Under the pieces are notes generated by a model, which ran no database searches, had not been told where the DNA came from, and was given only the letters and a program-made list of their open reading frames with translations. DNA of 64,000 nucleotides from a virus. Within the stretch, counting starts at the first letter, position 1, and every line of letters starts with the position of its first letter. The position numbers and the translations under genes are program-made. This document shows positions 37,107 through 38,743 of this stretch, one piece after another. Location: the IMG/VR virus record IMGVR_UViG_3300027909_000018. The stretch is one strand, 5' to 3'.

Positions 37107-37562
37107 TCACGCAACGTTGGTTCCAATTGCTTTCCATACCGCTTTAAGCTCGACGATGCTCTCGTATCGGCGTCGCAGGCTATCAAGCTGAGCCTTAACC
37201 CTGCGCACAAGCGCCGCATACTCCTCCTCGTCGTCCATGATATCTTCAATGTGCCTATATTGCGTTTCGCCTTTGGGCCCCGGCTCAATCTTCTCAAGCG
37301 CCGCAACCTTCACAACCTTGCCCTCTGTGGCGACGATCACGAACTTGTAACGCTGGATAAGCTGTCCGGCCTCGGACAGACGATGCCGGCGAGCCGCCGA
37401 GTGGTCGTCCCATGTAAAGTAGGACCGGAGTGGCGACTTGCCGGCCTCGGCGTCCGTCAGAACGATGTCGGGCGTCAGGATTCCGTTGTTCTGCTTTCGC
37501 AGAAGGTCCAGTCTCCTAACAACAGAATCCGGCAACCCGTTGTCATGTGATTCTTTGGTCAT
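37107..37562 (-). CDS. Partner protein downstream of the pentamer array (151 aa)
   Basis: AAGGA RBS right at array end; GILTP.IV...SPL..YFTWDD..AA..HRL..A..LI. Confidence 0.8.
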   Translation of the reverse strand: MTKESHDNGLPDSVVRRLDLLRKQNNGILTPDIVLTDAEAGKSPLRSYFTWDDHSAARRHRLSEAGQLIQRYKFVIVATEGKVVKVAALEKIEPGPKGETQYRHIEDIMDDEEEYAALVRRVKAQLDSLRRRYESIVELKAVWKAIGTNVA

Positions 37563-37583
37563 TGTGTATTCCTTGGTGGACAG

Positions 37584-38062
37584 GCTACGCCATGCTGTGC
37601 TTTTCTGTTCTTTGCTTCACAACGCCGCGCTGCGCGTGGCTACGCTTGCTTGGCTTCTCTTGACATCGCTTCGCTATGGTCGGCTAAGCTACGCTTGCTC
37701 GGCTGCACATCACTAGACTTTTCTAAGCTGCTCTATGCGTCGCTTGCTACGCTACGCTTCACTTAGCTGCACATCGCCGTGCCTAATTTTGCTTGCTATG
37801 CTCTACTGGACCGCGATCAACCGCGCTATGCCTCGCTGTGCTTGCTGTGCTTGGCACGTCTAGTCTGGACAGCGCTGGGCCGAGCTACGCCGAGCTACGC
37901 TTCGCTTGCTTCGCTGCTCTGCACTTCGCTTTTCTGCACTGGTCTAGGCATCGCTTGCTTTGCTTTGCTACGCTGAGCTTAGCTGGGCTACACATGGCCC
38001 GGCTTGCTTTGCTAAGCCGCAATTGGCTCCACTGCACTGTTCTGCGCTCCGCTTGCTCTGTC
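37584..38062 (-). ncRNA. Segmented (NN-AGC)n pentamer array, candidate guide-RNA array
   Basis: 87 pentamers hand-parsed: 43 end in AGC and 83 have G at the central constant position. Delimiter AAGC at 38051, 38002, 37953, 37904, 37840, 37791, 37742, 37693, 37644 (spacing 49,49,49,64,49,49,49,49). Confidence 0.8.
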
Positions 38063-38743
38063 CTACTCCGCCGCCTGGGCAACGGCGCTTTCATCAATCT
38101 CGAACGTTCCCCAGCCTTGCCCAACGCTTGCCTTTGAAAACGGACGGCCTGCGCCTACGCCGATGCTGATTCCGGAGTAGACAACCAGAGAGGCGATTGC
38201 TCGAGGCGTGAACGCCTTCGCGAGATACTTAACCCTAAGCAAACAGCTCCACTGGTCAAACTCGCCGGCCGAAACGATGCCAGACTTGCGCTGCCAGATA
38301 ACCGGTCGCTGGCGAATTGCCGGACCCGATCCGTGGATTCGAACCATACCGTTACAGTCCTGGTCCTCACCGTCTGGCAAGATGAACAGGCATTGCTTGG
38401 CGTGCGTCATGTCGATCCCCTCGGCGTAGCAAGCCCGCACCAGCGCGGCCCTAAACGCCATAGTCGGGATTCCGTGCCAGCCGTCTTTTGACGTGTGCAG
38501 CGAGTCGCGGCCGATTGCTTCGAAGTCGCGTGCCGGCTTTGCCTTGCTACGCTTCTTGGCTTTTGCCTCGACCTCGCCGATTGCCTGGTCCGTGATGATG
38601 GTCCCTTTGCTTACGTCCGAGAACCGATTGCTGACGTACTTAGCGGTCCCAACAATTGGGATCTCGATGACGTTGAACTGCGGGCGGGCAATGTCGATGA
38701 TCTTGGTTTCTGCTCTCTCTTCGTCTGTCTTGGGTTTTGCCAT
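38063..38743 (-). CDS. Stand-alone RAMP/Cas7-like protein (226 aa)
   Basis: Beta1 IEIPIVGTAKYVSN, GIPTMAFRAALVRAC (cf. IPGSSLKGALR) and C-terminal Gly-rich loop GVGAGRP...GQGWGTF; GGAGG RBS. Confidence 0.75.
   Translation of the reverse strand: MAKPKTDEERAETKIIDIARPQFNVIEIPIVGTAKYVSNRFSDVSKGTIITDQAIGEVEAKAKKRSKAKPARDFEAIGRDSLHTSKDGWHGIPTMAFRAALVRACYAEGIDMTHAKQCLFILPDGEDQDCNGMVRIHGSGPAIRQRPVIWQRKSGIVSAGEFDQWSCLLRVKYLAKAFTPRAIASLVVYSGISIGVGAGRPFSKASVGQGWGTFEIDESAVAQAAE

Follow-up and report, generated by a model that had tools for sequence, protein, structure and literature searches.

What kind of system is encoded at positions 37,107 to 38,743 of a 64,000-nucleotide virus sequence (IMG/VR record IMGVR_UViG_3300027909_000018, the whole of which is called the window here) is the question addressed below. 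A gene for a 226-amino-acid protein, a tract of five-nucleotide repeats and a gene for a 151-amino-acid protein lie there co-oriented on the minus strand, in that order, as had been claimed in a first reading of the letters alone (the original prediction), in which a phage RNA-guided system was proposed. The locus is considered here, with a probability of roughly 87%, to be a Viral Interference Programmable Repeat (VIPR) system, probably working by the mechanism set out below, of a temperate phage with a contractile tail that was found in rhizosphere metagenomes.

VIPR is a CRISPR-related class of RNA-guided DNA silencing that was first described in 2026 (10.64898/2026.04.26.720920, 10.64898/2026.04.26.720927). 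Vipr is a phage minimal RAMP that forms a polymer on vrRNAs of 9-16 GGY/NN pentamers, with one protomer to each repeat; pockets of the protein take up the flipped GGY bases, pairing with double-stranded DNA is made by the NN bases and passes over every third base of the target, and genes of rival mobile elements are silenced by the complex (10.64898/2026.04.26.720920, 10.64898/2026.04.26.720927). Seven types with the same repeat code and the accessory genes vap1-6 have been distinguished, and function was tested for type II VIPR only (10.64898/2026.04.26.720920, 10.64898/2026.04.26.720927). Such a class had been named in the original prediction; it exists in these two preprints, and the locus carries its sequence-level characteristics.

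The 226-amino-acid open reading frame (ORF) occupies 38743..38063 on the minus strand, with a AGGAGGAG ribosome-binding site upstream and a TAG stop codon. Structure prediction was done by using AlphaFold2 (AF2) with an alignment of 61 relatives, and the resulting model (pLDDT 87.8, pTM 0.81) contained beta1 at residues 23-32, helix-1 at 94-107, a three-stranded thumb hairpin at about 142-174 and an unstructured glycine-rich loop (G-loop) at about 194-212. A Foldseek search of this model against the PDB returned solely Cas7-type RAMPs (type VII Cas7, Csm3, Cmr4 and Cas7-11; E 1e-4 to 1e-3, TM 0.4-0.5). The best five matches among the AlphaFold-DB clusters, A0A0F9A1L0 (E 1.5e-13, TM 0.68), X1U2U4, A0A661D0E2, A0A2D6XG06 and A0A1F4YLN4, were identical to the five founding Vipr seeds named in the methods of the VIPR preprint, by which the Cas7/RAMP-like character proposed from sequence motifs was borne out. 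The family profile matched PDB entry 36pp_D, 'SUSP1 Vipr protein', with an E of 2.1e-6 in hmmsearch, and the hhalign comparison with SUSP1 Vipr gave a probability of 93.6% (E 2.2e-7) over the thumb end, the G-loop and the last strand. No Pfam family was found for the 226- or the 151-amino-acid protein and a single-sequence search of the PDB with the former gave no match; many uncharacterised relatives of it were found. Judged from its predicted structure, the ORF is a vipr gene, encoding a minimal single-RRM RAMP with a glycine-rich loop and a thumb.

The purine-rich pentamer tract (38057..37582, minus strand, 476 nt) begins 6 nt past the vipr stop codon, in good agreement with the segmented array of about 480 nt and 5-nt periodicity that had been described. 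Its mean period-5 Fourier power was 2.42, compared with 0.66 ± 0.10 for 500 dinucleotide-preserving shuffles (z = 16.8), and it was the sole extended period-5 region in the window. The gaps between neighbouring AGC triplets were multiples of 5 in 41 of 54 cases (shuffle mean 7.9, maximum 17) and exactly 4, at the junctions of units, in 9 of 54. Over 88 pentamers, position 1 was A in 76%, G in 12% and T in 9%, position 2 was G in 95%, position 3 was C in 67%, T in 20% and A in 12%, and positions 4 and 5 were variable, which corresponds to the consensus AGCNN. Segmentation was given by nine AGCAAGC anchors at 38057, 38008, 37959, 37910, 37846, 37797, 37748, 37699 and 37650, which stand 49 nt apart with one gap of 64 nt. 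Each anchor opens a guide unit made up of a 4-nt short repeat, AGCA, followed by 9, 9, 9, 12, 9, 9, 9, 9 and 13 pentamers, respectively. Unit 1 thus covers 38057..38009; units 2-8 start at 38008, 37959, 37910, 37846, 37797, 37748 and 37699, of which unit 4 has 12 pentamers and the others 9; and unit 9, the last, covers 37650..37582 with 13, all on the minus strand. The units abut with neither tail nor hairpin between them, and the junction AGCA[A]GCGN can be read as two pentamers with one base in common. The legend of fig. S18 in one preprint uses the term 'staggered arrays' for vrRNAs that overlap by 1 nt (10.64898/2026.04.26.720920), and by its repeat pattern the tract is a staggered vrRNA array of nine putative guide units.

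No match of the array to Rfam families or to the hammerhead was found, its RNA folding was no more stable than that of shuffles (z = +1.1), and no coding-strand promoters or terminators were predicted inside the locus. The last result fits a single operon, as weak evidence, and the three together fit a co-transcribed, protein-coated single strand, of which they are no proof. In 6 of the 9 units of the window AGCA is followed by AGCGN, and in relatives with A-type arrays (L003, L007 and L010; e.g. L007:4150-4760) AGCA is followed by GGCNN, the remaining repeats being AGC. It may be that a guide's first repeat is read in another way than those that follow it.

Directly behind the array, the ribosome-binding site AAGGA (37574-37570, minus strand) lies 7 nt after the array end and serves an ORF of 151 amino acids (37562..37107, minus strand) with its ATG at 37562; the partner gene that had been placed there proved to be a conserved accessory gene. 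In 90 of 124 loci a relative of it adjoins vipr, and no other neighbour of the window locus is conserved in any of the relatives' loci, so the mobile module consists of vipr, the array and the accessory gene. The 151-amino-acid protein matched phrog_15946 (E 8e-18). In its AF2 model (pLDDT 91.4), residues 3-110 or so were aligned by VIA-align to winged-helix domains of the MecI, Fur/PerR, MarR and ArsR families, ESCRT-II and Z-alpha with middling Z of 5-6.7, the C-terminus formed a helical hairpin, and the Foldseek matches were weak (E >= 0.018). The hhalign comparison of the accessory profile with SUSP1 vap1 showed no similarity (0.3% probability). From these models the ORF is a conserved vap-like accessory gene, the N-terminal half of whose product is predicted to be winged-helix-like.

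The linkage between gene and array was determined by using the loci of relatives, 80 from IMG/VR (of 482 relatives of Vipr found there), 42 from GTDB genomes and one from an NCBI metagenome-assembled genome. In a Fourier scan, 99 of the 123 loci showed a period-5 tract downstream of the gene at a distance of up to 700 nt, and nearly all showed one within about 1.5 kb; nearly all of the loci without a nearby downstream tract have one upstream or behind the next gene. The triplet recurring at +5 on the gene strand was GGC in 102 of 117 loci and AGC in the closest relatives of the window only. Over about 200 homologous, divergent loci from many phyla, nearly all carry gene-adjacent arrays in strict strand orientation with the gene. 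The proposal that homologues would be accompanied by 5-nt-periodic arrays was thereby upheld, mostly in the form GGC/NN. The punctuation has the general form RGCA and then RGCNN across the family, with GGCA followed by GGCNN in GGC-type loci and AGCA followed by GGCNN in A-type relatives. Units bounded by a short repeat amounted to 674 over all loci, with 9 pentamers as the commonest size. A set of 13 loci whose Vipr proteins are nearly identical had 49 distinct guides, and only 11 of these were shared, which indicates that the NN content turns over on a constant scaffold.

The constant triplet is the point at which protein and RNA could be compared, and for this a set of 148 non-identical proteins was used, including 80 loci retrieved, whatever their array type, by the pattern Ala/Cys at the G-loop position. 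In the alignment to SUSP1 Vipr, column 198 corresponds to D177, R200/P201 to R179/P180 and column 159 to R138, and column 157 lies in the thumb two residues before the counterpart of R138. In SUSP1 Vipr, D177 hydrogen-bonds G1 and the R138A substitution is inactivating (10.64898/2026.04.26.720920, 10.64898/2026.04.26.720927). The window protein has A198, where GGC-type relatives have Glu, and V157, where the family has Arg. The share of chained repeats starting with A had a mean of 0.11 in the 73 loci with Glu198 and Arg157 and of 0.13 in the 49 with Ala198 and Arg157; it was about 0.1 in the 9 with Glu198 and non-Arg157, and 0.43-0.83 in the 12 with Ala/Cys198 and non-Arg157. Thus A dominates position 1 only where both the G-loop Glu198 and the thumb Arg157 are lost. 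The change from Glu to Ala alone was rejected as the cause of the AGC switch, as the 49 loci with Ala198 and Arg157 are still GGC. The double loss was found in five separate clades, each with a G-type sister, in the FastTree phylogeny, and at least two origins were obtained already by IQ-TREE, which was the more careful run with fewer sequences.

This covariation is independent evidence that Vipr contacts the constant triplet, and the grip on the triplet that had been predicted is supported at the very residue reading G1 in the SUSP1 structure. From the distribution of residues it appears that G1 is read redundantly by the G-loop carboxylate and the thumb arginine, and that the pocket would be retuned toward A where both are lost. 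The scaffold substitutions tested in SUSP1 include GGY>AGY, and perturbation of GGY abolished silencing (10.64898/2026.04.26.720920, 10.64898/2026.04.26.720927); an AGC array in nature would hence be expected to require a protein adapted to it. A tentative proposal, to which somewhat less than even odds are given, is that with the A-G-C scaffold the RNA-recognition code of Vipr truly switched from GGY to AGY, and did so repeatedly in evolution, creating systems orthogonal to GGY-type ones. If so, AGY phages would neither load the 'solo' or decoy vrRNAs of rivals nor lend guides to rival Viprs, and a second, non-cross-reacting scaffold for engineering as well as a route to escape from decoy guides would be available.

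The mechanism considered for the locus is as follows. The vipr gene, the array and the vap-like gene are most likely transcribed as one operon, and the array transcript would be processed into nine vrRNAs of 9-13 pentamers, the boundaries of which would be set by the register-breaking 4-nt AGCA in the staggered manner, with a 1-nt overlap. One Vipr protomer would bind each pentamer, with A-G-C held between the G-loop, the thumb and helix-1 and the two variable bases displayed; A instead of G would be read at position 1, with the loss of the G-loop carboxylate (A198) and the thumb arginine (V157) as the likely cause. By analogy with the SUSP1 VIPR, the displayed dinucleotides would pair with double-stranded DNA, each third base of the target being passed over, and the complex would silence genes of a competing mobile element with the help of the winged-helix-like accessory protein.

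Several points weigh against the assignment of the locus to VIPR with this mechanism. Significant homology to SUSP1 Vipr is confined to the part from the thumb to the G-loop (about 50 residues, thumb to C-terminus). The thumb of the window protein is atypical, with A159 in place of SUSP1 R138 and without counterparts of the family residues D155 and R157, so a reduced or altered function is possible, given that R138A inactivates SUSP1 Vipr; the window protein also lies on a long branch. The accessory protein is unrelated to vap1 of SUSP1, the sole vap tested. The runs in which the locus occurs are all of DNA and come from nine studies of rhizosphere metagenomes, with no RNA run among them. That DNA rather than RNA would be targeted in this clade is drawn from analogy. 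The guide searches described below also count here, as scoring with 0-3 skipped bases placed no guide higher than the shuffled ones, either in the window or at some 200 related loci, and no exact matches were obtained for guide 4 (24 bases) in IMG/VR or in the JGI metagenomes or for guide 9 (26 bases) in metagenomes.

The state of the thumb leads to the alternative that a decaying or inactive VIPR remnant was observed, whose thumb residues were lost and whose relic array drifted from GGC to AGC. The missing counterparts of D155, R157 and R159 (the last being the essential R138 of SUSP1), the long branch, the degenerate triplet in about a quarter of the repeats of the window and the target searches, by which no target was found, would all suit a remnant. 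It is nevertheless regarded as unlikely. The ORF is intact and its AF2 model confident, 95% of the 88 repeats retain the G at position 2, the 49-nt spacing of the units is exact, and drift would not yield 76% A at one position. The A-type state recurs together with the same double residue loss in five lineages. The sequence was identical across several samples, with the identical array in six other metagenome assemblies of the same phage, and vrRNAs are described as usually degenerate internally (10.64898/2026.04.26.720920, 10.64898/2026.04.26.720927).

Searches for targets of the decoded guides in public collections were done by using exact NNx matches with no mismatch tolerance. Guides 7 and 8 (18 bases) had no exact match in IMG/VR, and guide 1 had 2 in the public collections; over IMG/VR and the JGI metagenomes together, five guides had none. 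Guide 3 had 15 exact matches, which lie in unrelated genes, form about six groups without relation to each other and are mixed in strand and codon phase, versus 2 for its scrambled control (dinucleotide order reversed); none of the 15 extends to the next repeat, and no convergence of the other guides on these loci was seen. They are chance or a weak lead at most. The 3-skip 'matches' in the window were rejected, being the array itself. In IMGVR_UViG_3300036894_000035, a 2.7-kb piece with a portal-like gene, an exact match to guide 3 occurs along with 15/18 for guide 7 (shuffle maximum 13) and 17/24 for guide 4; this is the only such hint of convergence, and it is not significant after multiple testing.

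A second alternative, on which these searches bear, is that the complex forms as described and targets RNA like the type III Cas7 backbones, or works otherwise than by triplex DNA silencing. The closest solved folds (Csm3, Cmr4 and Cas7-11) are RNA-targeting, type II is the only VIPR for which function was tested and differs from the locus in array layout and accessory gene, and no DNA target was found. This alternative is held to be very unlikely, because the winged-helix-like fold predicted for the accessory protein is one that DNA binders typically have, the segment with the G-loop and the thumb shares homology with that of the DNA-targeting SUSP1 Vipr, and the same repeat code is reported across all seven VIPR types. 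That the tract is a DNA-level element (iterons, an origin, or an array of packaging or binding sites), or low-complexity sequence that lies by an unrelated gene by chance, has a negligible probability, since its place between the replication and packaging modules and its occurrence in DNA runs, which would suit such an element, are opposed by the strength of the periodicity (z = 16.8), the strict orientation and gene adjacency in about 200 divergent loci of many phyla, the covariation of the constant base with the RNA-contacting residues of the protein, and a repeat form and number matching those of experimentally sequenced vrRNAs.

The reading as a VIPR system is in keeping with the viral/proviral setting of the locus. 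The element carrying it is a temperate, contractile-tailed phage, with genes for an integrase (51540-52682), a primase (44550-45581), the small and large terminase (35779-33952), the capsid (24999-26090), the sheath (19349-20893) and the baseplate (9196-10713); the VIPR module lies between the replication genes and the packaging genes. No related phage was found by megablast of 24 kb against INPHARED.

Four further features of the window were recorded. A tRNA-Met (CAT) and a tRNA-Asn (GTT) lie at 21320-21473 on the minus strand between phage tail genes, and a glycosyltransferase-like gene (28379-29641, minus strand; phrog_13126, E 8e-25) lies within the head and packaging region. Seven imperfect 34-nt repeats were found at 525-1272, within an ORF of 611 amino acids (229-2064), spaced by 66, 126, 132 and 192 nt, all multiples of 6; with these internal repeats the ORF looks like a gene for a repetitive fibre-like protein. 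A separate tandem repeat of 96 nt in 2.5 copies is located near 11.6 kb (11610-11864).

GGC-type systems of the same Vipr family were observed in three phages. In Gordonia phage UmaThurman (NC_031249.1) a GGC/GGT pentamer array lies at about 33345-33694 directly after the Vipr homologue gp39, at a place annotated in GenBank as gp40 (YP_009302876.1, hypothetical protein); gp40 is more likely a vrRNA array than a protein-coding gene. Gordonia phage ODay has gene 19 with an array of 200 nt, and cyanophage Cy-LDV1 has g34 with arrays flanking g33 on both sides. As cultured or host-assigned phages, ODay and Cy-LDV1 are possible laboratory models; all three phages are cultivable.

The VIPR class has been known for only some months, with tests in a single clade, and the locus adds a well-resolved example of a tail-less staggered array from soil phages. 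The class and the layout were already known; the covariation of two residues with repeat position 1 is new here and provides a directly testable specificity rule.

Among the known systems, the Cas7-family backbones (Csm3, Cmr4, type VII Cas7 and Cas7-11) share with the window protein an RRM core, a glycine-rich loop and a thumb hairpin, as well as the principle of one subunit per fixed step of guide RNA. In contrast to class 1 CRISPR effectors, the locus is phage-encoded, its step is 5 nt instead of 6, its guide is noncontiguous, and Cas5, Cas6, Cas10, Cas11 and adaptation genes were not seen in a cas search that was not exhaustive. The original prediction had noted neither a CRISPR repeat-spacer array nor cas1/cas2 or Cas3/Cas10 in the window; the first part held, no CRISPR-like repeat-spacer array being found in the 64-kb window, and for the second no cas gene was present among the annotated ORFs of the window (phage structural, replication and integration genes), within the same limit of the search. 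Assignment to a class 1 CRISPR-Cas effector of type III, IV or VII was rejected, as the window has no repeat-spacer array and the conserved module comprises two genes.

The type II VIPR of Escherichia phage SUSP1 (YP_009199429.1; vrRNA1-4; PDB 36pp and 36pk) resembles the locus in its homologous Vipr, in the 5-nt repeat with two variable bases (9-13 repeats per unit here, within the published 9-16) and in an operon of vipr followed by vap with flanking arrays. It differs in having a conserved 3' tail and pseudoknot, which are absent here. The G-loop of the window protein has an insertion of 8 residues, with Ala, Gly and Ala in place of D177, W178 and R138, respectively; its accessory protein is unrelated to vap1, and repeat position 1 is A. 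Type II itself was ruled out, as the units are tail-less and without excess structure and the accessory protein is unrelated to vap1.

The staggered-array VIPR, as far as it is characterised in the legend of fig. S18 (10.64898/2026.04.26.720920), is like the locus in having a minimal RAMP gene by uninterrupted pentamers, a small accessory gene and a viral setting, and in the 1-nt overlap of guides without a tail, which takes the form AGCA[A]GCGN here and GGCA[G]GCNN in relatives. Judged from the same legend, it differs in the constant triplet, which is AGC here and not GGY; the window also differs from its A-type relatives, with GGC in the first repeat of a unit, in that its first repeat is AGC too. 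The proposal that AGC marks a distinct variant is correct as a description; related consensus forms are already given in the preprint, namely NNNGG, YNNNG and NNNNG (10.64898/2026.04.26.720920, 10.64898/2026.04.26.720927), of which YNNNG would cover the C-NN-A-G of AGC repeats.

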